A stretch of DNA of 64,000 nucleotides from Candidatus Ryanbacteria bacterium RIFCSPHIGHO2_02_FULL_45_17b (GCA_001819815.1 MHNO01000009.1:71734-135733), one strand, 5' to 3'; positions 1,566-47,749 are shown, counted from the first letter of the stretch. Notes: generated by a model from the sequence alone, not told the origin. Numbers and translations: made by a program.

Positions 1566-1771
1566 GAATTACGAAACACACCCTCATCCGATGACCGCCA
1601 CACGAATTGATAATGAGTTGAACAAGATGTGTAACGTCTTGCGATGACCAAAATATGAAAAATAATAATAAAGAATTCAATATTGGGTCATCGCAAGACG
1701 TTATATTGTACTTGTGTATGCAAATTGATGGGAGGTCATCAGATGAGAGGAATACATGTGTTTCGTAATTC
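1566..1771. mobile_element. MITE-like inverted-repeat element, copy 1 (full length, with an internal 17-bp-stem hairpin)
   Basis: Terminal inverted repeats GAATTACGAAACACACCCTCATCCGATGACC ... GGTCATCAGATGAGAGGAATACATGTGTTTCGTAATTC. Internal perfect hairpin AACGTCTTGCGATGACC / GGTCATCGCAAGACGTT. Related copies lie at ~48700 and ~27116. The track ORF 1552..1773 lies inside it. Confidence 0.55.
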
Positions 1772-4518: not shown

Positions 4519-6168
4519 TCAAGATTTCGTCTCTATATACCCCAACATGTTTTCAAGGGAAACATCAAGCTTTTTCCCCGGATTAAAAATACCATTGGGG
4601 TCAAAAATGCGCTTTGTTTGTTGAAACAATCCATACATGTCTTTGCCAAACATATCTTCTACATAAGCTCCGCGTATCAAACCATCATTATGCTCCCCGC
4701 TAATAGAACCATGATATGCAAACACAAGATCATACACGCGCCGCGCCACCTCGCGTATGGTTTGCTTCATGCGCTTATTTTTCGGATCCATGAGCGGTAT
4801 CACATGAAAGTTTCCATCACCCATGTGCCCCGCAATCGTATAAATTAAATCATCATATTCATCTATAATCTGTTTCAACTTGGGGAGAAATTCCGATACC
4901 TGTTCCGGCGGAACAACCACATCATCTATAAAAGGAGCCGCGCGTAATCCTCGAACACGTCTCCGTAATAAATTGAAACTCTCCCGGCGCATAACCCAAT
5001 ATTTTTCCGCTTCCGCGTTGGTACGCGCAATTTTACTGCGTAACCCTGAAACCATATGGATATCCTTTTCTGCTTTCTCTGCCATGAGGCGCGCTTCCTT
5101 CTCGGTCTTTGCTGTAAATTCCACAAGAAGCACCAATTTGGGAACACCTCCTGTAAGCACCATCCACATCTCGGGCAAAAATGAGACGGCAAGTTTAAAA
5201 AAGGTACTCTTCAAGCGCGCAGCAAACTCCGGAAAAAACTGTATGGCAACCCGAAACGTATGGTCATCATATGATTCAAAACTCTCCGGCTTATGACGCA
5301 TTATACGTTTAATCACCCTTCCCAAATTGTTCATGTCATCAAGAAAGAGCACTAAAAGCGCTGAATGCGGATTCGGACGCACCAGCTGAAACGTGACATC
5401 CGTAATAATACCAAGCGTTCCCTGGGAACCCACAATAACTTTAGTCAGATCAAAAACACCGCGGTTTTCATCAAACACGTCCCATAAATTGTACCCTGAT
5501 GAATTTTTTGAAACAGCGGGGCGCGCTTTTTCAATAATCGCGCGATGAGAAATAATCAATTCACGCATCCGCCGATATATATCTCCTTCAATCCCATCCT
5601 CTTGCATTTTCCGCTTCCATTCCTCTTTATGCAACGGTTTAAACACATGAGGTTTTCCATCGCCCAGCACCATGGTTATTTTTTTGACATACCGTTCCGT
5701 TTTTCCATACTTGAGATTTTTCTCCCCGCCTGCGTTGTTTGCCACCATCCCTCCGATGGCGCAAATTTCACGAGATGCCGGATAACTCGGCAATATCAAT
5801 CCATGTTTTTTTGTCTCGGCATCAAAATCACGATAATACATACCCGGCTCAACAACTGCGTACTCCCCCGCAAACCCTTTCAGGCGATTCATGTACCGCG
5901 CGAATACTAACACGATAGACTGGGAAAGCGGACCACCTGTCATATCCGTACCGCCAGAACGAGCCGTAAGTGATATCGATGCTCCTCCTTGTTTTTTCTT
6001 CGCGACAAAGGAGACCAGATTACATACATCCGCCACGCCTTTCGGAAACACAACAATTTCTGGTTTTATGCGGAATAAACTAGCATCTCTGCTATATTCA
6101 TCACGCACTTTCGGAGATGTTTCCACATCACCTTCAAAAAAAGAACGTATTTCTCCTGCAAGATTCAT
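4519..6168 (-). CDS. FAD-linked oxidase (PCMH-type FAD-binding domain; GlcD/D-lactate dehydrogenase-like)
   Basis: GGTDMTGG FAD-binding motif and a long C-terminal oxidase domain. Start taken at MNLAGEIRSFF (internal ATG at 6168). Confidence 0.75.
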   Translation of the reverse strand: MNLAGEIRSFFEGDVETSPKVRDEYSRDASLFRIKPEIVVFPKGVADVCNLVSFVAKKKQGGASISLTARSGGTDMTGGPLSQSIVLVFARYMNRLKGFAGEYAVVEPGMYYRDFDAETKKHGLILPSYPASREICAIGGMVANNAGGEKNLKYGKTERYVKKITMVLGDGKPHVFKPLHKEEWKRKMQEDGIEGDIYRRMRELIISHRAIIEKARPAVSKNSSGYNLWDVFDENRGVFDLTKVIVGSQGTLGIITDVTFQLVRPNPHSALLVLFLDDMNNLGRVIKRIMRHKPESFESYDDHTFRVAIQFFPEFAARLKSTFFKLAVSFLPEMWMVLTGGVPKLVLLVEFTAKTEKEARLMAEKAEKDIHMVSGLRSKIARTNAEAEKYWVMRRESFNLLRRRVRGLRAAPFIDDVVVPPEQVSEFLPKLKQIIDEYDDLIYTIAGHMGDGNFHVIPLMDPKNKRMKQTIREVARRVYDLVFAYHGSISGEHNDGLIRGAYVEDMFGKDMYGLFQQTKRIFDPNGIFNPGKKLDVSLENMLGYIETKS

Positions 6169-6266: not shown

Positions 6267-6950
6267 TCACTCAATGGTTTGCTGTTCTATGGAAATGATT
6301 TTTCCATCGTCAAACTTTACAACTCTATCCGCGCGTTTTGCGTATTGAATTTCGTGCGTAACCATAATAATAGTCTGACCTTCTTTGTGCAGTCTCTTAA
6401 AAATATCCATGATAAGCGCGGATGACTCGTTGTCCAGGTTCGCGGTCGGCTCATCCGCAAACAATACCTTGGGATTATGCGCAATCGCACGCGCAATAGA
6501 TACCCGTTGTTGCTCCCCGCCCGATAGCTGGCTCGGTAAGTTGTATAAGCGATGGCCAAGACCCATTTTGGTAAGCGCATCATCCGCTTTTTTGTATGCT
6601 TCTATGGAAATAAGGTTTTGCATCAAAAGAGGTAACGCTACATTTTCAATAGCTGTAAGATCCGGTAACAAGGCATAATCTTGGAATACGTATCCAAACT
6701 TTTGTAGACGAAATATAACCTCTTCTGCATCAGTCATCTCGCGCGTGCTATGGCCATCCACCAACACATCACCGGAAGTTGGTTCATCAAGCAAACTCAT
6801 TTGATATAAAAAAGTGCTTTTCCCTGCACCTGAGCGCCCCATGATGGCAATAAACTCTCCATCGCTCACGGCAAAATCAATGCCTTTCAATACACGGGTT
6901 TCCACACTCCCGTTCTTAAATGTTTTTACTAATTTTTTTACTTCAATCAT
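6267..6950 (-). CDS. ABC transporter ATP-binding protein (MacB/LolD/FtsE-like)
   Basis: Walker [10 protein letters not shown], signature [14 protein letters not shown], Walker B LFADEPT. Start at MIEVKKL. Confidence 0.85.
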
Positions 6951-7061
6951 GGAATTATGTGCAAGTAAAATTCTGAAACATGCAGGGGAAAAGTCCTCGG
7001 TTCTCCTTCGCTTCGCTCGGCCAGACTTTTCTCGTGCATGTTTCAAAATTTTCACATAGGC

Positions 7062-13691: not shown

Positions 13692-14954
13692 CTATTCTCT
13701 CTTAATATCCGCTCCCACCGCTTGCAAGCGTTCATCTAATTTCTCATACCCTCTGTCAATTTGATACACATTACTGACGCGTGAAGTACCGCGAGCCACA
13801 AGTGCAGCAATTACAAACGCCATACCCGCTCGCAAATCCGGACTTTCAAAATTACGGGGACGTAATTTCGCGGGTCCAAATACGATAGCACGATGCAAAT
13901 CACACGGGACAATATGCGCGCCCATACGATTCAAATCTTCTACATATGCAAGACGCCCTTCAAAGAGAGTTTCAAATACCATTGATTCACCGTGTGCTTG
14001 CGTAAGAAGGACCATAAAAGGAGCTTGATAATCAGTCGCAAACCCGGGATATTCATGCGTCCGCACATTCACCGGCTGCAGTTTTGCCGCGCGCGTTATG
14101 GAAAGCCAATCTTTCCCCTGTTCGATACCCGCGCCCGCGGAACGCAAATAAGCGAGAAGTACCTCCATGTGCGCCGGATCACATTGTGTAATCTTTAGGT
14201 CTTTTCCTAAAAGAGCCGCAAGAATAGCAAAGCTCCCCGCCTCCAATCTGTCTGGTATTATCTGGCAAGTCCCGCCTTTGAGCAGTTTACCTCCCGTACC
14301 CTCGATGGAAATGATAGGCGTTCCTGCACCCTGTATACGAGCACCGCACGCATTCAAAAATTTTGCGAGCGCCGCGATTTCCGGTTCCAAAGCGGCATTT
14401 CGGAGTATTGTGCGTCCTTTTGCCAAAACAGCAGTCATCATGAGCCCCTCCGTTCCGGTATGACTCACCAAACGAAATGTGTAATCAGTACCACGCAACT
14501 CCCGAGCGCGTATATCAAATCCGGCAGAATTTTCTCGGATCACCGCGCCCATTGCGCGCCATCCTTCCAGAAAAACATCTATAGGCCGGCGCCCGATAAC
14601 ACAACCCCCCGGATGCGGAAATTGCGCCCGGCCCTCACGCGCAAGAAGCGGACCTGCAAAAAGAATGGATGGACGTATGCGTTCCGCGATAGAACGAGGA
14701 AGTTCCGTAGCAAGAGAGCGTGTGGTCGGAATAATACGAATTGAACGAGATGCCGTGTCAACCGTTTGGTACCCAACAGAAGAGAGAAGATCGCGCATAC
14801 GCGCAACGTCTTCTATAACAGGCATGTGAGTCAACACTACAGGCTCTTTACATAACAAAGCGGCTGGAAACATCTTTGTTGCATGATTTTTTGCCCCCCG
14901 AACGGGAATTTCACCGGAAAGCGTCTTGCCGCCGCGAATAATAAAATGAGACAT
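13692..14954 (-). CDS. murA: UDP-N-acetylglucosamine 1-carboxyvinyltransferase
   Basis: Full-length EPSP-synthase fold, 420 aa, classic MurA N-terminus (IIRGGKTLSGEIPVRGAKN). Confidence 0.9.
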   Translation of the reverse strand: MSHFIIRGGKTLSGEIPVRGAKNHATKMFPAALLCKEPVVLTHMPVIEDVARMRDLLSSVGYQTVDTASRSIRIIPTTRSLATELPRSIAERIRPSILFAGPLLAREGRAQFPHPGGCVIGRRPIDVFLEGWRAMGAVIRENSAGFDIRARELRGTDYTFRLVSHTGTEGLMMTAVLAKGRTILRNAALEPEIAALAKFLNACGARIQGAGTPIISIEGTGGKLLKGGTCQIIPDRLEAGSFAILAALLGKDLKITQCDPAHMEVLLAYLRSAGAGIEQGKDWLSITRAAKLQPVNVRTHEYPGFATDYQAPFMVLLTQAHGESMVFETLFEGRLAYVEDLNRMGAHIVPCDLHRAIVFGPAKLRPRNFESPDLRAGMAFVIAALVARGTSRVSNVYQIDRGYEKLDERLQAVGADIKRE

Positions 14955-18306: not shown

Positions 18307-18861
18307 ATGTCTCCTCAAAACTCAAAAAAAATTGTTACCAACCCAAACCCCGTTCTTCATAAACGGGCACTTGAGGTACCTATTGTTGAAATTACTTCCA
18401 AAAAAATCCAGCATATACTTGCGGATATGACGACGGCACTCCGCGGCACATCAGAAGGCATTGGCATTGCCGCGCCCCAAATCGGACATAGTTTGCAAAT
18501 CTTTCTTGCATCCGAAGAAGCCCTCCGGTGGGATGAGCTTGAAGACATGCCACGTGAAGATCGAAAGAAAAAACAATGGACGTATTATACATTTATAAAC
18601 CCTATCATAAGAAAAGCTTCAAAAAAGAAAACATCTGAAACAGAAGGATGTTTGAGCGTGCCTAAAACATATGGCACCGTGGAACGGTCAGAAAAAATTA
18701 CCGTAGAAGCGTATGATGAAACAGGTAAAAAGTTCCAGCGGGGCACCTCAAAATTATATGCCCGCGTCATGCAGCACGAAATAGATCACCTCAATGGCAT
18801 TTTGTTTATTGAAAAAGCAAAGAATATTAAGAACATACACGCTATAAAACCTGAAATATGA
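18307..18861 (+). CDS. def: peptide deformylase
   Basis: The three PDF motifs: GIGIAAPQIG, EGCLSVP, HEIDHLNG. Confidence 0.9.
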   Translation: MSPQNSKKIVTNPNPVLHKRALEVPIVEITSKKIQHILADMTTALRGTSEGIGIAAPQIGHSLQIFLASEEALRWDELEDMPREDRKKKQWTYYTFINPIIRKASKKKTSETEGCLSVPKTYGTVERSEKITVEAYDETGKKFQRGTSKLYARVMQHEIDHLNGILFIEKAKNIKNIHAIKPEI

Positions 18862-19847
18862 AGATAATCTTTTTCGGCACCCCTGATTTTGCTGTTACCA
18901 TTTTGAAAGCGTTGATAGACGCGCATATGTCGCCTATCGCGGTAGTAACAACTCCCGATAAACCCGCCGGACGCGGACATATCATTACAAGTCCGCCCGT
19001 AAAAACATTTGTAGAAAAATATACCATTCCTGTATTTCAACCAGAAAAACTCAAAGACGAAACTTTCTTGCATACATTGCAAAATCTCAACGCGGATGTC
19101 TTTGTTATCGCGTCTTATGGAAAAATTCTTCCCCAAAATCTTCTTGATATCCCACTCAAAGGAACTATAAATGTCCATCCATCACTGCTTCCGCGCCACC
19201 GCGGCCCATCACCCATCCAGAGCGCAATTCTCGCCGGAGATAGCACAACAGGCATAACGCTCATGCTCACAGACAAAGAGATGGATCATGGACCCATCAT
19301 TGCAACCTGTAGTTGGCACATTGCAGATAGCAATAGTACCTACGCCCAACTTCACGACAAGCTTGCTGAACTTGGTGGAGATTTGCTTGTAAAGACTTTA
19401 CCGAGATGGATTGCAGGAGAAATCACACCTCAAGAGCAACATCATCCGGAAGCAACCTATACAAAACTTCTTACAAAAGAAGACGGACACATTGATTGGA
19501 CTAAATCAGCAAAAGAAATAGACCGCATGGTGCGTGCTCTAAATCCATGGCCCGGCACTTGGTCTACACTTTCGGAGGCGAAACCTCCGATTTTTTCAAA
19601 AATCGGAGGTTTCGCCTCCGAAAGTGTTAAGCGGGTAAAAATTCTTGCCGGACATCCACTGGATGAAAAATCAACCGTGCCAGCCGGTACTATTCTCAAA
19701 ACAAAAAGCGGCCACCTTGCCGCTTGTACTAAAAATGGTCTCTATATGATCGAGATGTTGCAAGTGGAAGGAAAGAAAGCAACTCTTGGCACAAACCTCC
19801 TTAATGAACTGTCTCATTCTCAACAGGCACATCCACGCCTCTTGTAA
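18858..19847 (+). CDS. fmt: methionyl-tRNA formyltransferase (carries a 17-codon in-frame palindromic insertion)
   Basis: Formyl-transferase N-terminal domain (SLLPRHRGPSPIQ) and C-terminal domain. Overlaps def by 4 nt. Confidence 0.9.
   Translation: MKIIFFGTPDFAVTILKALIDAHMSPIAVVTTPDKPAGRGHIITSPPVKTFVEKYTIPVFQPEKLKDETFLHTLQNLNADVFVIASYGKILPQNLLDIPLKGTINVHPSLLPRHRGPSPIQSAILAGDSTTGITLMLTDKEMDHGPIIATCSWHIADSNSTYAQLHDKLAELGGDLLVKTLPRWIAGEITPQEQHHPEATYTKLLTKEDGHIDWTKSAKEIDRMVRALNPWPGTWSTLSEAKPPIFSKIGGFASESVKRVKILAGHPLDEKSTVPAGTILKTKSGHLAACTKNGLYMIEMLQVEGKKATLGTNLLNELSHSQQAHPRLL
19572..19622. repeat. 51-bp perfect palindromic element inserted in frame in fmt (copy 1)
   Basis: TCGGAGGCGAAACCTCCGATTTTTT C AAAAATCGGAGGTTTCGCCTCCGAA. 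The arms are reverse complements of each other. The element encodes SEAKPPIFSKIGGFASE. Confidence 0.7.
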
Positions 19848-31625: not shown

Positions 31626-33943
<2,318 letters not shown>

Positions 33944-33966
33944 AACTCTAAACTCTGAAAACTAAT

Positions 33967-35024: not shown

Positions 35025-35696
35025 TTAATCCTTAATTATGGCAATATTTTTTAAGTTTACTATGGAAATTCCGTTCTTCGTTACTGAACCATATCCATGC
35101 AACTTAAACTCCAAGACGCCCACCTTTGCTCTAATATGTGCTATAGGTACTTCTACAGGCAGATACTCGTTCCTGCTAGATACATCTCCACGGAATGTAA
35201 ACAAGAGAGTGTCCTCGAAAGATATGGTTAACCAATCCCCATCTCCCGGTTCTAGAAAATTCATGTCGAACATCAAAAGATCTGCATTTGGATGTATTTG
35301 TATATCAGTTCTTATTCCACTCTCATCTCCCGTTTGAAGAGTCGACAATAGTAAATCCCCTTCAACAGAAGCAACTGGTTTTAATGCTTCAGAAGAAGAA
35401 AAGCTTCTCCATACTATCTTATTTGAGCTCTGATCCTGTGGTTCAGTAGGTTGCTTTGAATTACTAGTCTCTAGAGGTTTTGTATTTGTTTCATCATCGG
35501 CATCTGCCATCATTCCATTATTTTTCTCCTCCATCACATCTTTCATTTGCTCTGCCATGTCAATCGCGGATGTTTCTTCGGTTGTGGGAATAAATTTATC
35601 TTTTATCGGCAACTGTATCTTGAAAACGCCGATGCCTAAAATGGCAATAATGCCGACTACAATGAGAATACCTATAAGACCGAATCCTTTTTGCAT
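35025..35696 (-). CDS. prepilin-type N-terminal domain protein (pilin-like), variant 1
   Basis: MQKGFGLIGILIVVGIIAILGIGVF is a class III (type IV pilin-like) signal, divergent at +5 (Gly instead of Glu). The first ~55 aa are near-identical to the 36600..37649 protein. Confidence 0.6.
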   Translation of the reverse strand: MQKGFGLIGILIVVGIIAILGIGVFKIQLPIKDKFIPTTEETSAIDMAEQMKDVMEEKNNGMMADADDETNTKPLETSNSKQPTEPQDQSSNKIVWRSFSSSEALKPVASVEGDLLLSTLQTGDESGIRTDIQIHPNADLLMFDMNFLEPGDGDWLTISFEDTLLFTFRGDVSSRNEYLPVEVPIAHIRAKVGVLEFKLHGYGSVTKNGISIVNLKNIAIIKD

Positions 35697-35705
35697 GGTA
35701 TGTAA

Positions 35706-36489: not shown

Positions 36490-36582
36490 TTATCCCAAAA
36501 GAGCAAGTTCCACAACCTTTGTTATCTGCCCGATATTTTTGACACTTCGGAGCCGTTGTTTGATTGTTTGGAGAGATTGCAT
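36490..36582 (-). repeat. direct-repeat copy of the atpG 5' end (copy B), fused into a 30-codon ORF
   Basis: ~83 bp, near-identical to atpG codons 1-27 (MQSLQTIKQRLRSVKNIGQITK) starting exactly at the ATG. The sequence upstream of the ATG is unrelated. Confidence 0.8.
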
Positions 36583-36599
36583 AAATTTACACGTAACTC

Positions 36600-37649
36600 C
36601 TATAAGGAGATCCTCATAAGAGTGCCGTCTGTATATAAAAGAGCGAAACTTGGAAAATAAATAAATTGATGCCAGCCACTTGCAACCCCATCCCACTTTA
36701 GAGCTTCATTTAATCTTGCTCTGAAATCGGAAAAAAGATAATTTCCAAAATTTTCTTTAACTAGACGGCTTGCTGTCTGCCGAACATACCAGCTATAAGT
36801 GTCTGTGCCTGCCTTGAATCCAAAATCAGAGTCTTTGGGTCGATTTGTTTCTATAAATGAGTCACTTTTTTTATCCCATACATACCACTTACCACTTGCA
36901 AAAGCTTCAGGCACAATATGGAATCCCAACCCCCGGGTACCTGGAAATTCTATGTATTCAGTCGTTGTATACACATGCGTGCCGTCGGTCAAAAATTGCC
37001 CCAAACCCTCACTACTATTGTGTTTTATAGAATAGAGTTTCATATTTTTTATATCAAACCGATACACGCCTAAAATACTTGGCTCAGAATACATTTCTCC
37101 TGATTCAGCAGCACCTATAAAGAAGTTTCCTTGGAAATAAACGGCATCAAATTGTTGAAATGCTTCTCTTTTGGGCAACTCGGGTATCTGTATGAGCTGG
37201 AAAGAAAATGTATTTGTATCAAGAAGGTACAAATCTCTACCTACCGCAAGTAATGCCGTATGATCATTATCCCCTGCAAGAACAAGAACTTGCTGTTCTG
37301 AAGACCACGCATTGGGAACCGCGAGAAAACCGGGTGCTTCAGTTCGTGCCCTCCCACCCAACCATTTTTCAGAAGGATCAGATAACATGAACTTAACAAG
37401 ATTATTTCCTGCAACAGAAGGTACATCGGTAACGTCATCAGTACCAACCGCCTGACTATTTTTCTCCTCCATTACGTCTTTCATCTGCTCTGCCATGTCA
37501 ATCGCAGATTTTTCTTCGTTCGTCGGAGTAAATTTATCTTTTATCGGCAACTGTATCTTGAAAACACCGATGCCTAAAATAGCGATAATACCGACTACAA
37601 TGAGTATTCCGATAAGACCGAATCCTTTTTGCATGGTATATTTTTGCAT
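36600..37649 (-). CDS. prepilin-type N-terminal domain protein (pilin-like), variant 2 with a different C-terminal domain
   Basis: Same N-terminal ~55 aa as variant 1 (the start may be the internal MQKGFGL). C-terminal 290 aa unrelated to variant 1. Confidence 0.6.
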   Translation of the reverse strand: MQKYTMQKGFGLIGILIVVGIIAILGIGVFKIQLPIKDKFTPTNEEKSAIDMAEQMKDVMEEKNSQAVGTDDVTDVPSVAGNNLVKFMLSDPSEKWLGGRARTEAPGFLAVPNAWSSEQQVLVLAGDNDHTALLAVGRDLYLLDTNTFSFQLIQIPELPKREAFQQFDAVYFQGNFFIGAAESGEMYSEPSILGVYRFDIKNMKLYSIKHNSSEGLGQFLTDGTHVYTTTEYIEFPGTRGLGFHIVPEAFASGKWYVWDKKSDSFIETNRPKDSDFGFKAGTDTYSWYVRQTASRLVKENFGNYLFSDFRARLNEALKWDGVASGWHQFIYFPSFALLYTDGTLMRISL

Positions 37650-38589: not shown

Positions 38590-38674
38590 TCACTACCAAT
38601 TCCATGGCTTTTGTTATCTGCCCAATATTTTTGACACTTCGGAGCCGATGTTTAATTGTTTGAAGGGATTGCAT
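38590..38674 (-). repeat. direct-repeat copy of the atpG 5' end (copy C), fused to 53 unrelated codons
   Basis: ~85 bp matching atpG from the ATG through MELV (codon 27). ORF 38432..38674 then diverges. Confidence 0.8.
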
Positions 38675-38714
38675 AATATTTGATTGTTAGGTACTGAAAT
38701 CTAGAAACTAGAAA

Positions 38715-39361: not shown

Positions 39362-40912
39362 CTATGGAAATCTATAAGAATCAATAAATTTCTGAATCAC
39401 TTCTTTGAGTGTTTTCTCAATCTCTTCATCAATTGCTTTCTTTTCCCGCAGAGGAGCAAGTAAATCCGCTTCGTGGAATTTTTCGAGATATTCCGTAAAC
39501 TCCGCTTCAAATTTTTGAATATCTTCAGGTTTTATGTCTTTAAGGTATCCATTGATAGCCGCATAAAACAACACTACCTGGCGCTCAAACGGAACCGGTG
39601 ATAAATCGGATTGTTTCAAAAGCTCGGTCATAACACGGCCTTCTTGAATGCGTTTTTTTGTCTCATCATCCACATCCGACGCAAACTGCACAAACGACTG
39701 CAATTCACGAAACTGCGCGAGGGTAAGACGGAGCTTACCCGCAACTTTTTTCATGGCTTTAGTCTGTGCGGTAGACCCCACGCGCGAAACCGAAAGCCCC
39801 GCGTTGATTGCCGGGCGCATGCCTTTGTTGAATAAATCCGCCTCCAAATAAATTTGCCCGTCGGTTATAGAAATTACATTTGTGGGCACATATGCCGTAA
39901 CATCACCCAGTTGCGTTTCAATAATAGGAAGCGCAGTTAGAGAACCACCGCCCTTTTCTTTGGAAAGCTTTGCCGAACGCTCCAACAACCGCGAATGCAA
40001 ATAAAATACGTCCCCGGGATACGCCTCGCGCCCCGGCGGCCGGCGCAAGAGCAATGAAATTTGGCGATAGGCTGATGCGTGTTTTGAAAGATCGTCATAA
40101 ATAACCACCGCGTCTTTTCCGTTATTGCGAAAATATTCTCCGATTGCGCACCCCGCAAACGGCGCTAAGTACCAAAACGCCGCGCTCGAAGACGCGGGAG
40201 CCGAAACCACAACCGTATACCCCATGGCGCCCTGTTCTTTCAACGTTTCCACCATGCGGGCAACTTTGGATTCTTTCTGCCCAATAGCCACGTAAATACA
40301 AACGGGCGGTTCCCCCTCTTCTTTTTGCTGGTTTACAATAACATCAAGCGCGATGGCGGTTTTGCCGGTTTGACGATCGCCAATGATAAGTTCGCGCTGA
40401 CCGCGGCCAATAGGGATCATAGCATCAATGGCTTTGATGCCCGTGTGCAGAGGCGTATTTACCGACTCGCGATCCACCACGGACGGCGCTTGCTCCTCCA
40501 AAAACATTCGCTGTCTCAAAGATGTGTCTGATTTCCCTGAAAAAAGCGGCCCCTTTCCATCCATGGGGTTTCCCAATGGATCAACCACGCGCCCCAAAAT
40601 TTCGGGTCCCACTTCAACCGAAAGGATTGTGCCCGTAGTTCGCACCGCATCTCCGCTTTGAATGCCTTTGTACTCACCGAGCACCAACGCGCCGATGGTT
40701 TCTTCGCCCAAGTTTAACGCAAGCGCCATGCGTTCGCTGCCTTCACGCGCTTCTACGCGCAACAGCTCCTGACTTACAGCGTTTCGTAATCCGGATACTT
40801 TTAAAATACCGTCTCCCACTTCGATAACTTCACCTGCATCTTCCCATTTCGACTCATCATGAAAGTCTGCTATTTCGCGTTTTAATTTTTCTATAAGTTC
40901 GTAAGACATCAC
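39362..40912 (-). CDS. atpA: F0F1 ATP synthase subunit alpha
   Basis: [13 protein letters not shown]-loop. 516 aa. Confidence 0.95.
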
Positions 40913-44337: not shown

Positions 44338-44404
44338 AAAAATCCTCCTTTCCAATTATGTTCTTTTTCATCATAAATCCTCAACAATAAAAAATCCATA
44401 TAAA

Positions 44405-44440
44405 AAACACGCGTGATTACTTCGCGCGTGTTTTTTATAT
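44405..44440. terminator. bidirectional intrinsic terminator-like hairpin
   Basis: ACACGCG...CGCGTGT 7-bp stem flanked by A-run and T-run (AAAAAACACGCGTGATTACTTCGCGCGTGTTTTTTAT). Confidence 0.4.
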
Positions 44441-46033: not shown

Positions 46034-47749
46034 ATGAAAAAAAATTCTTGGCTTCTCCCAGTAATACTATTGACCGCTAGTGTACTTCGTTTATGGTCAC
46101 TCGGTAGCGGTGATACGCTTTCCGATGAAGTACTATACTCATTCCGCGCCATCGGCATGCTCGATTTTGATGAAGCGGCAGAACAAACAACGCCCCTTGA
46201 ATGGTTCGACCCACACATACCCTCATGGACAAAATTTTCTTTTCACGACCACCCGCCATTTGTATTTGCCGTACAACATATATCCATGCGCATGTTCGGA
46301 GAAACGCCGTTCGCATTTCGTCTGCCATCGGCACTTTTAGGAATTGCCTCCCTATACTTGCTGTATCGAATAGGATCTTTATTGTATGGAGAACGCGCGG
46401 GACTTCTTGCGGCGGCTCTCATGGGCGTAACAACAAACCATGTCGCAATCTCACGCCTCGGTTTACAGGAATCATACGTAATCTTTTTTATTCTTCTTGC
46501 CACCTATTTTTTTCTAAAAGCCGAAAAACAAAAAAAGTATTATATTCTCGTAGGCATCGTACTGGGATTCGCAATGCTTACTAAATACACGAGCGGAATT
46601 CTTATCCCTGTGTTTCTGACATATATGCTCCTCTTTCGGAGAAATGATTTTTTTTCACGTTTTGTGTACATAGGCGTACTGTGCGCTTTTCTTCTTTTTT
46701 CACCCGTTTTCTATTACAATTTTAGACTCTATCAAGCAGTCGGGCATTTTGATTTCCAACTTTCTTATATACTAGGACAAAACCCGGAAGTGTGGAGTGT
46801 GCAACCCGGCAAAGAAGAGTTTCCCACACTCGTGAGCCGTGCAAGAGCATTCTTTCCAAACATAATGCATTTTAATTCATGGCTCTTCTTGTCTCTTGTC
46901 ACAATCAGTATTGGCGCATGTGTTATTTCTCTCAAAAAGAATATGAAAGAAGTAGCACGAATGCATGCTTTTCTTTTCATAACACTCATCTGGCTTCTTT
47001 TTCTTATCATTGGCATCATTGGTCCCTCTCTGCGATTCTTGGCAATGCTTACACCATTTATGATACTTGTGACAGTCAGTGTATTACAGATACTAGCGGA
47101 GGCGAAACCTCCGAATTATACTTATATTCGGAGGTTTCGCCTCCGATATATTATTGGAATATTACTTCTGTTTGAAATCCTCTACTCTGCCAACTCTCAA
47201 TTGCTTCCGTACCCCAAAGGTCCGGAGTTTTGGGCATGGTCCCCCGTGCGCTATGAAAATTATCATCGGGGGTATGAAGAACTTGATTTGTGGATGCGTA
47301 AACAAACAGATGACCGCATGCCCGCGCTCGCGTTCGAACCTACATATAATTTCATAGGAGAAATCCATAAACAATCACTCGCCACCGACGAACGCGCTGG
47401 TAAAAAACCCCTCTCAACACTTTTTGTATATGATAAAAACATAAACAGCATTGCCCAGCTCTGGATACTGGACCGCCTGCAAGTGTACCATGCCTGGCCC
47501 ATCATACCCGCTGACACCTACATAAAATTTCTAAATGAAAAAGGGGCAGATTATTTTAAAAAAGCTGGATTCGCTGAAATATATTATATCTTTCCGACAG
47601 AAAACGTTCCGTGGAAAAAGGAACAATACCTCACCAACATTGGCATGAAGTTAGAACAAACCTTGACGAAAAGTGGTCTTGTACTATACACTGTACTTGA
47701 AAACAAACGCTCCGAACCCGTGTTTCGAATTTATAAGATGGAGATATAA
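46034..47749 (+). CDS. GT39/ArnT-like polyprenol-phosphate-sugar dependent glycosyltransferase (carries an in-frame palindromic insertion)
   Basis: About 11 TM helices, the conserved DE/DT loop after TM1 (LSDEV), and a C-terminal soluble domain. Adjacent to the GT2 synthase. Confidence 0.8.
   Translation: MKKNSWLLPVILLTASVLRLWSLGSGDTLSDEVLYSFRAIGMLDFDEAAEQTTPLEWFDPHIPSWTKFSFHDHPPFVFAVQHISMRMFGETPFAFRLPSALLGIASLYLLYRIGSLLYGERAGLLAAALMGVTTNHVAISRLGLQESYVIFFILLATYFFLKAEKQKKYYILVGIVLGFAMLTKYTSGILIPVFLTYMLLFRRNDFFSRFVYIGVLCAFLLFSPVFYYNFRLYQAVGHFDFQLSYILGQNPEVWSVQPGKEEFPTLVSRARAFFPNIMHFNSWLFLSLVTISIGACVISLKKNMKEVARMHAFLFITLIWLLFLIIGIIGPSLRFLAMLTPFMILVTVSVLQILAEAKPPNYTYIRRFRLRYIIGILLLFEILYSANSQLLPYPKGPEFWAWSPVRYENYHRGYEELDLWMRKQTDDRMPALAFEPTYNFIGEIHKQSLATDERAGKKPLSTLFVYDKNINSIAQLWILDRLQVYHAWPIIPADTYIKFLNEKGADYFKKAGFAEIYYIFPTENVPWKKEQYLTNIGMKLEQTLTKSGLVLYTVLENKRSEPVFRIYKMEI
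47096..47146. repeat. 51-bp palindromic element inserted in frame in the GT39 gene (copy 2)
   Basis: CGGAGGCGAAACCTCCGAAT TATACTTAT ATTCGGAGGTTTCGCCTCCG has the same arms as the fmt copy with a different centre. It encodes AEAKPPNYTYIRRFRLR. Confidence 0.7.

Follow-up and report, generated by a model that had tools for sequence, protein, structure and literature searches.

Candidate REPIN-type palindromes in frame in genes of Parcubacteria and Omnitrophota, and an associated RAYT-like transposase

Two palindromic elements were analyzed in a stretch of 64,000 nucleotides (the window) from Candidatus Ryanbacteria bacterium RIFCSPHIGHO2_02_FULL_45_17b (MHNO01000009.1:71734-135733), a lineage of Parcubacteria in the candidate phyla radiation (CPR); one lies in fmt, the gene of methionyl-tRNA formyltransferase, and the other in a gene of the glycosyltransferase family GT39. 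The closest described systems are the doublets of repetitive extragenic palindromic (REP) sequences, called REPINs, which occur together with a REP-associated tyrosine transposase (RAYT) in E. coli and Pseudomonas (PMC3116915; PMC3479197; 10.1101/2021.07.10.451892). REPINs are described as almost exclusively extragenic. In Pseudomonas, REPIN copies at conserved positions change to the sequence type of their own genome (10.1101/2024.10.14.618302).

Intragenic REPs with the GTAG/CGTC tag are known from Opitutus terrae, Thauera, and Rickettsia conorii, where monomers or dimers are placed in frame, add ~20-30 residues, and occur in DNA ligase, UvrD, and tRNA synthetases; the authors regard them as a tolerated decoration of proteins, and they class the Rickettsia palindromic elements (RPEs) RPE-4 and RPE-6 as CGTC REPs (Di Nocera et al., 2013, PMC3733652). 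The elements considered here are likewise in-frame monomers and dimers in known genes, including those of DNA ligase, UvrD, and tRNA synthetases. Unlike the tagged REPs, whose intragenic copies are the minority of a mostly intergenic family, they are untagged, belong to another lineage, and are intragenic as a rule, and their orthologous sites are common to several genomes, with switching of the sequence variant. A second precedent is RPE-1 (Ogata et al., 2000, as cited in PMC3733652 and PMC1779305). The likeness, one of architecture, is that of a selfish palindrome lying in frame in conserved open reading frames (ORFs) of a small-genome bacterium, missing from distant orthologs, and presumably translated as surface loops; the lineage and the unit length differ, and the CGTC tag of RPE-4 and RPE-6 is absent here. 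RPE-1 measures roughly 100-150 bp and is not built from two 17-nt hairpins, and to our knowledge no transposase has been linked to it.

No description of REPs or RAYTs in CPR bacteria was found in the literature, in agreement with an earlier reading of the window made from the sequence alone (the sequence-only reading), which knew of no such account for this kind of genome. Intragenic REPs were thus known before, and it is their untagged and gene-indifferent form in CPR bacteria and Omnitrophota that is new.

Two palindromes in the window

The two elements, their host genes, and an overlapping antisense ORF are located as follows (no strand is assigned to the doublets).

18858..19847, plus strand: host gene fmt (methionyl-tRNA formyltransferase), intact, 329 aa, Formyl_trans_N/C
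19566..19627: REPIN-like doublet in fmt, in the order ACACTT outer stem, arm TCGGAGGCGAAACCTCCGA, spacer TTTTTTCAAAAA, inverted arm, AAGTGT
19572-19622: core of the fmt element, codons 239-255, peptide SEAKPPIFSKIGGFASE
19573..19589, plus strand: left REP-like arm, F1 variant, CGGAGG-CGAAA-CCTCCG, a hairpin by itself
19604..19620, plus strand: right arm, CGGAGG-TTTCG-CCTCCG, the reverse complement of the left arm
19457..19699, minus strand: antisense ORF of 80 aa, which does not count as evidence of a gene
46034..47749, plus strand: host gene of a GT39/PMT_2 family membrane glycosyltransferase, intact, 571 aa, PMT_2/PMT
47094..47148: REPIN-like doublet in the GT39 (PMT_2) gene, codons 355-371, peptide AEAKPPNYTYIRRFRLR

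The fmt palindrome is 62 bp long, with 30-nt arms that are 100% complementary around a 2-nt center, whereas the GT39 palindrome is near-perfect and spans 55 bp, with 23-nt arms (96% complementary), a 9-nt center, and a codon phase that differs between its two arms. The sequence-only reading had quoted both sequences, each of which is present where it was placed, and had taken them for perfect palindromes of ~51 bp with identical 20-nt arms. Perfection holds for the fmt copy, which proved to be longer, but not for the GT39 copy; the arms are identical over 18 nt (CGGAGGCGAAACCTCCGA), beyond which the two sites differ in the next bases (TT against AT) and in the 5' base (T against G). Four copies of this arm are contained in the window, compared with 0.03-0.05 expected from shuffled sequences, none of which (0/100) reached four or more. 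The common arm is itself a small hairpin, as had been noticed, and its predicted RNA fold alone yields -11.6 kcal/mol. For the complete fmt element, the predicted fold is a hairpin with 29 bp and an energy of -54.2 kcal/mol (z = -13.5), and the GT39 element folds at -39.7 kcal/mol (z = -9.7).

Each element occupies exactly 17 codons, and both ORFs stay open, as the same reading had held. Its further remark that the antisense strand encodes nearly the same peptide is also borne out (SEAKPPIFEKIGGFASE), and this ORF is a by-product of the palindromic nature of the element. A run of T follows each arm of the fmt copy in this genome (19572-19598 on the plus strand and 19621-19595 on the minus strand), and for this reason both strands of fmt score in a consensus scan as having a site like an intrinsic terminator halfway along this essential gene. 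An intragenic bidirectional terminator was rejected as an explanation, the T-run being particular to the fmt spacer of this genome and not found in the orthologs. At gathering thresholds, Rfam gave no family match anywhere in the window. A search of the window for relics of the arm with up to four mismatches returned a single, spurious match.

Compared with the solved structures 3r8x and 1fmt, the element accounts for ~12 extra residues after the NPWP..W strand of Fmt, and the loop at this position is short in distant orthologs from CPR bacteria (Niyogibacteria, Spechtbacterales, and others), which agrees with the earlier view of an ordinarily insertion-free site. In the AlphaFold model of the window Fmt, with a mean predicted local distance difference test (pLDDT) score of 90.3, residues 242-254 are the sole internal stretch of low confidence, and the 17-residue insert forms a loop between the beta-strands 234-239 and 257-268; placement in a surface loop had been expected. 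GT39 orthologs that are up to 55% identical lack the segment. The junction peptides of the inserts include TLSEAKPPIFSK and IGGFASESVK, and the element peptides are presumably translated as in-frame loops. The insertions are not private to this genome: relatives carry elements, relics, or other arm variants at the same fmt and GT39 sites.

The wider family and its transposase

A metagenome scan with a degenerate two-arm pattern, which allowed 64 variants per arm and was limited to the A...A' arm order, identified 63 loci with 55 unique doublets and 12 arm variants. The repeated unit is 17-19 nt long with a 6-7-bp stem, and the doublets measure ~34-63 bp from arm end to arm end. The variants include the loop forms CGAAA, CGAGA, TGAGA, TCAGA, and TCCGA between F1 and F3, and some of them differ by a stem pair (G:C or A:T). 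Taking the 55 metagenomic and the two window doublets together, the arms are exactly complementary in 55 of 57, and at least four further complementary bases flank the arms in 27 of 57; the outer-flank consensus before CGG is AAAA[C/T][T/A]TT. Contigs with several copies contain a single variant each. The density of units ranges from four in the 64-kb window and three doublets on a 69.8-kb metagenomic contig to as many as nine units in 3.2 kb near a transposase gene.

The hosts, identified by Pfam annotation of the ORFs that span an element, are intact housekeeping genes, in which the copies occupy all three codon phases (numbers of hosts above one in brackets).

Cell wall and envelope: Alr (2), Mur ligases (2), PilD
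Translation and tRNA: GatA (2), GatB, TsaD (3), YchF (2), MnmA (2), MiaA, TrmD, RF-1, MetRS, Ile/Leu/Val-type and Asp/Lys-type tRNA synthetases, Fmt (2)
DNA and RNA metabolism: TatD (2), LigA (2), UvrD, RNase R, RNase J, RNase HII, HolB
Other: AtpG (2), PGM, IscS-like aminotransferase

By a fixed rule, 43 of the 55 doublets (78%) are intragenic, compared with 77.5% of random 42-nt windows drawn from the same loci; therefore, the elements neither prefer nor avoid genes. The arms are free of stop codons in all six frames.

A scan for single arms covered 185,579 species genomes, a set to which the source genome does not belong, and its 52 matches served as a control set; most of them had arisen by chance in GC-rich genomes or were hairpins of ordinary terminators. 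Four single F1 hairpins flanked by TTTT...AAAA were observed in Candidatus Jorgensenbacteria JAZDFV01 (L023 901-917, L046 5491-5507, L038, and L027). At least two of them are located inside ORFs of more than 330 aa, and therefore single units also occur in frame.

The elements recur at the same sites in related genes, and the arm sequence differs from genome to genome. An alignment of Fmt proteins shows related peptides at the element position in many Parcubacteria, and in the three relatives for which ortholog DNA was retrieved the site is palindromic without exception, so that no ortholog carrying the segment without palindromic DNA was encountered. One of the three (L053, 64% amino acid identity) keeps the F1 arms with a different spacer, and the other two (L054 and L056) carry a second, 19-nt arm type, F2 (TCGGAAGT-CCG-ACTTCCGA), with a compensatory G:C to A:T change in its stem. 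Only a single or decayed arm is seen in other Fmt orthologs (AEVGLP, PEAKLP, EVEHP). In GT39 orthologs, the same alignment column holds an F1 doublet (P0244), an F2 doublet (P0247), or a decayed element (P0242, P0243, P0249, and P0254). The F2 doublet of P0247 (alignment A3, columns ~430-460) is in the reversed arm order, A' and then A (SEVGLP...RKSDFR). The two arms of F2 and F3 doublets differ by one loop base only, and such doublets are therefore also near-perfect direct repeats.

In the genome Gr01-1014_29, both Fmt and GT39 contain the F2 type; therefore, the arm type belongs to the genome and the site to the gene. Other proteins behave in the same manner. F1 and F2 share one column and one codon phase in YchF hosts that are 79% identical, and three arm variants occupy one alignment column across TsaD hosts. 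The columns of YchF, TsaD, Fmt, and GT39 thus hold different variants in different genomes. Elements are found at matching columns in orthologous GatA and TatD hosts and within the same loop in pairs of Alr, AtpG, and LigA; in other host pairs the sites differ. The atpG gene of the window lacks a doublet that an 81%-identical relative carries. A second insertion in the atpG gene of L089 was dismissed as an element copy, since it is not palindromic. Retention of the site while the arm follows the prevailing variant of the genome implies replacement or rewriting in place.

The family is associated with a transposase gene. At one metagenomic locus (L065), F1 hairpins are located upstream of a gene, within its reading frame, and at the 3' end; the product of this gene is a Pfam Y1_Tnp protein that shares 100% identity with one from Candidatus Gorgyraea atricola (Omnitrophota). 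By tblastn, a homolog of this Y1 protein is encoded at 7 of the 54 element loci and at none of the 52 control loci (p = 0.013). Five of the seven genes have the arm variant of their own locus both on the flanks and inside, namely F1 in L065 and L081, F2 in L072 and L117, and a CAG-loop variant in L088. In two separately fetched loci, L125 (Terrybacteria) and L127, the Y1 gene is flanked by further, different hairpins, which in L127 read ATCGAGG-CGAGA-CCTCGAT.

The Y1 family (1,218 matches) comprises proteins of 220-250 aa with invariant YH.YNRG, HxH (HUH), and Y.H.NP motifs, an invariant catalytic Tyr, and a conserved RWSSY region at the C-terminus. The sole NCBIfam match of the Y1 protein is NF047646, the REP-associated tyrosine transposase (35-42 bits). 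Its AlphaFold model (pLDDT 87.7) has as the top Foldseek match in the Protein Data Bank (PDB) the complex of the E. coli RAYT with a REP hairpin (4ER8, E = 2e-6, template modeling score 0.63), which outranks the TnpA proteins of IS608 and ISDra2.

At several loci, the Y1 gene itself contains one or two copies of its cognate unit in frame, always in the same variable loop, which separates the FEFND..PAGK segment from the HUH strand and is disordered in the AlphaFold model. The positions of these units within their loci are as follows.

L065/L124: 10160-10199
L117: 1219-1270
L072: 1145-1161
L088: 1843-1859
L081: 122-138
L127: 10173-10191

The hairpin that flanks the Terrybacteria Y1 gene of L125, TCGCAAC-CGG-GTTGCGA, is unrelated in sequence and present in five copies in 15 kb (4750-4766, 5485-5501, 5939-5955, 6521-6537, and 14563-14579), one of them inside a called gene. 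Its recurrence suggests many more REP families in CPR bacteria than the scan pattern could detect. An identical 17-nt F1 arm (CGGAGGCGAAACCTCCG) is present in L124, from Candidatus Gorgyraea atricola of the Omnitrophota, and in the Ryanbacteria window; either convergence or a horizontal transfer of the system could explain this arm, which is common to two phyla of ultra-small bacteria.

Origin of the elements

Taken together, the anatomy of the elements, the per-genome variants, the RAYT-like fold, and a transposase gene with its own units on the flanks point to a system of the REP/REPIN-RAYT type, and the two window elements are probably copies of a non-autonomous mobile palindrome of this kind, linked to a RAYT-like HUH/Y1 transposase. 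The earlier comparison with the selfish in-frame elements of Rickettsia is thereby retained and sharpened, the arms being conserved across dozens of genes. As in described REPIN-RAYT systems, two inverted short hairpin units and a spacer make up one long hairpin, what appear to be many dispersed copies conform to one sequence type per genome, copies at conserved positions match the type of their genome, the HUH/Y1 gene is flanked by its own units (an arrangement called REPtron) in the related loci L065/L124, L072, L081, L088, L117, L125, and L127, and the best structural match is 4ER8. The differences from these systems are that genes are not avoided, the intragenic share being equal to the random expectation and both window copies being intragenic, that the doublets are shorter than the ~100 bp of classical REPINs, that the hosts are CPR bacteria and Omnitrophota, and that the transposase, a longer protein with a C-terminal region that is conserved, often contains a unit in frame in a loop of its own.

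Several observations weigh against this assignment. Two textbook features of REPINs, the extragenic location and the GTAG/CGTC tag, are lacking, and no tag of the described REP superfamilies was detected at the arms or flanks of the elements. The window contains no Y1 or RAYT gene by tblastn, and the Y1 genes of L107, L078, and L126 have no flanking arms by the strict pattern. The RAYT model score of the Y1 protein falls under the curated cut-off of 80, and sequence and profile searches of this protein against PDB yielded only marginal ISDra2 matches and did not reach 4ER8. Finally, six-frame freedom from stop codons is a weak argument for coding adaptation, being shared by 17-29% of random 17-mers.

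Each element consists of two inverted 17-19-nt hairpin units, here TCGGAGG-CGAAA-CCTCCGA, separated by a spacer of 0-30 nt, and a single strand can fold as one long hairpin because complementary flanking bases lengthen the palindrome. If the REPIN-RAYT assignment is right, these units would be REPs, and the elements would be copied and maintained in trans by a RAYT-like HUH/Y1 transposase that acts on single-stranded DNA, where it would recognize the hairpin, and whose gene would lie at another place in the genome; the Y1 protein would then mobilize the elements, and the source genome itself presumably encodes such a protein. In the gene-dense, ultra-small genomes of CPR bacteria, such as Parcubacteria, and of Omnitrophota, insertion into genes would occur at about chance frequency, and the surviving copies would be those that keep the frame in tolerant surface loops. 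Arms that are free of stops and encode short polar peptides rich in Pro and Gly would, on translation, give disordered loops of 12-20 residues. Copies would then endure at orthologous sites, with the arm sequence tracking the prevailing variant of each genome.

The first alternative is that the hairpins are not mobile DNA but cis elements selected by the host and kept for a function within certain genes, such as RNase III sites, pause or terminator signals, sites of ribosome pausing at the GGAGG resembling a Shine-Dalgarno sequence, or sites of gyrase or nucleoid proteins. The high stability of the hairpins, arms that are intact at orthologous sites over 30-50% protein divergence, the terminator-like score of the fmt copy on both strands, and the host roles of this sort known for classical REPs (PMC3733652) all agree with it. 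We nevertheless consider it unlikely, since more than 30 genes without functional relation share the same arms, which are also present in intergenic DNA and whose positions do not depart from random, their presence or absence differs between close relatives, many copies have decayed, the orthologs lack the T-run, no Rfam family is matched, and a transposase gene is surrounded by clustered arms that co-vary with it. A host function could be layered over mobility.

Secondly, the elements may be derivatives (of the type of palindrome-associated or miniature inverted-repeat transposable elements) of autonomous IS200/IS605 insertion sequences (IS), so that the hairpins would be IS ends and no domesticated single-copy RAYT would be involved. 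The Y1 protein matches Pfam Y1_Tnp, an IS200-like family, and belongs to the enzyme superfamily of the IS200/IS605 TnpA proteins, with which it shares the HUH motif, the single catalytic Tyr, and presumably the recognition of hairpins on single-stranded DNA; IS608 and ISDra2 TnpA are its next-best structural matches, the RAYT model score is below threshold, and identical F1 arms in Omnitrophota and CPR bacteria could mean horizontal spread. Such an origin is nonetheless improbable. RAYT is both the best fold match and the only NCBIfam match, no IS200 model of NCBIfam being hit, and nothing like a multicopy IS gene whose left and right ends are distinct was observed. The Y1 proteins, with 220-250 aa and the RWSSY extension, are larger than IS200 TnpA, which has ~140 aa. 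No tnpB-like gene was called beside Y1 in L124-L127, the loci that were searched for tnpB. Both flanks of the Y1 gene are one and the same unit, inverted, which is also present inside the gene, and the switching of variants at fixed positions is a described behavior of REPINs.

A local origin of the palindromes, by hairpin-primed or template-switch errors of replication at an existing small hairpin and without transposition, would account for palindromy that often extends into site-specific flanks (at least four bases in 27/57 doublets). It leaves unexplained why dozens of unrelated genes, in more than one phylum, contain identical arms of 17-19 nt, as well as the per-genome variants and the association with a transposase, and is highly improbable. 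An artefact of assembly or amplification, e.g., a chimeric inverted junction of the kind by which multiple displacement amplification or assembly can create perfect palindromes, can be dismissed, because the 62-bp palindrome is identical, together with 990 of 990 bases of fmt, in three independent assemblies, the exact Fmt protein of the window is encoded on 18 contigs, the reading frames are intact, and homologous elements occur in many samples.

REPINs and RAYTs have been regarded as long-lived, vertically inherited replicators that survive by keeping out of genes. The family described here has the same architecture and link to a transposase, yet its placement with respect to genes is indistinguishable from random, and essential genes contain its members in frame in organisms whose genomes have hardly any intergenic DNA; under the REPIN-RAYT interpretation, the REP/RAYT phenomenon extends to CPR bacteria and Omnitrophota. 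The elements amount to natural loop-insertion scans of conserved proteins. Since each copy is anchored in an alignable protein, the modification or replacement of REPINs in place by RAYTs becomes testable across deep divergence, a test that extragenic REPINs do not permit. The inserts also inflate or distort protein alignments and gene calls of CPR bacteria and give rise to spurious antisense ORFs.

A more speculative version, which we hold to be possible but doubtful, is that the RAYT-REPIN system of CPR bacteria and Omnitrophota has moved wholesale into coding sequence, with the transposase rewriting or replacing in-frame copies in place. Surface loops of dozens of essential proteins, including Fmt, TsaD, GatA, YchF, AtpG, tRNA synthetases, and the transposase itself, would then be periodically re-coded to the current hairpin variant of the genome. 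This would constitute an enzyme-driven, genome-wide editing of essential ORFs, possibly kept because the intragenic hairpins serve the host.

Other repeats in the window

Three other inverted repeats of the window (1632-1703, 6967-7052, and 44398-44440) are located in stretches that no long ORF spans. They comprise 28-29-nt arms at 86-90% and a 19-nt hairpin with A/T flanks that resembles a bidirectional terminator. All three were rejected as members of the family, their sequence being unrelated to the element.

The first ~75-82 nt of atpG, comprising the start codon region, are present three times on the minus strand with 93-94% identity (33864-33945, 36518-36592, and 38595-38676). These copies bound ~5 kb of unrelated genes between atpA (39362-40912) and atpG (32999-33943), a region that encodes prepilin-like proteins, a putative pair of the nucleotidyltransferase/HEPN type as judged from the translations, and a possible retropepsin-like ORF. 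The arrangement looks like repeated integration of cassettes at the atpA-atpG junction with duplication of the 5' end of atpG. Within the same region, a 183-bp repeat with 91% identity (35519-35701 and 37457-37639) encodes the common N-terminus MQKGFGLIGILIVVGIIAILGIGVFKIQLPIKDKF of two otherwise different prepilin-like proteins.

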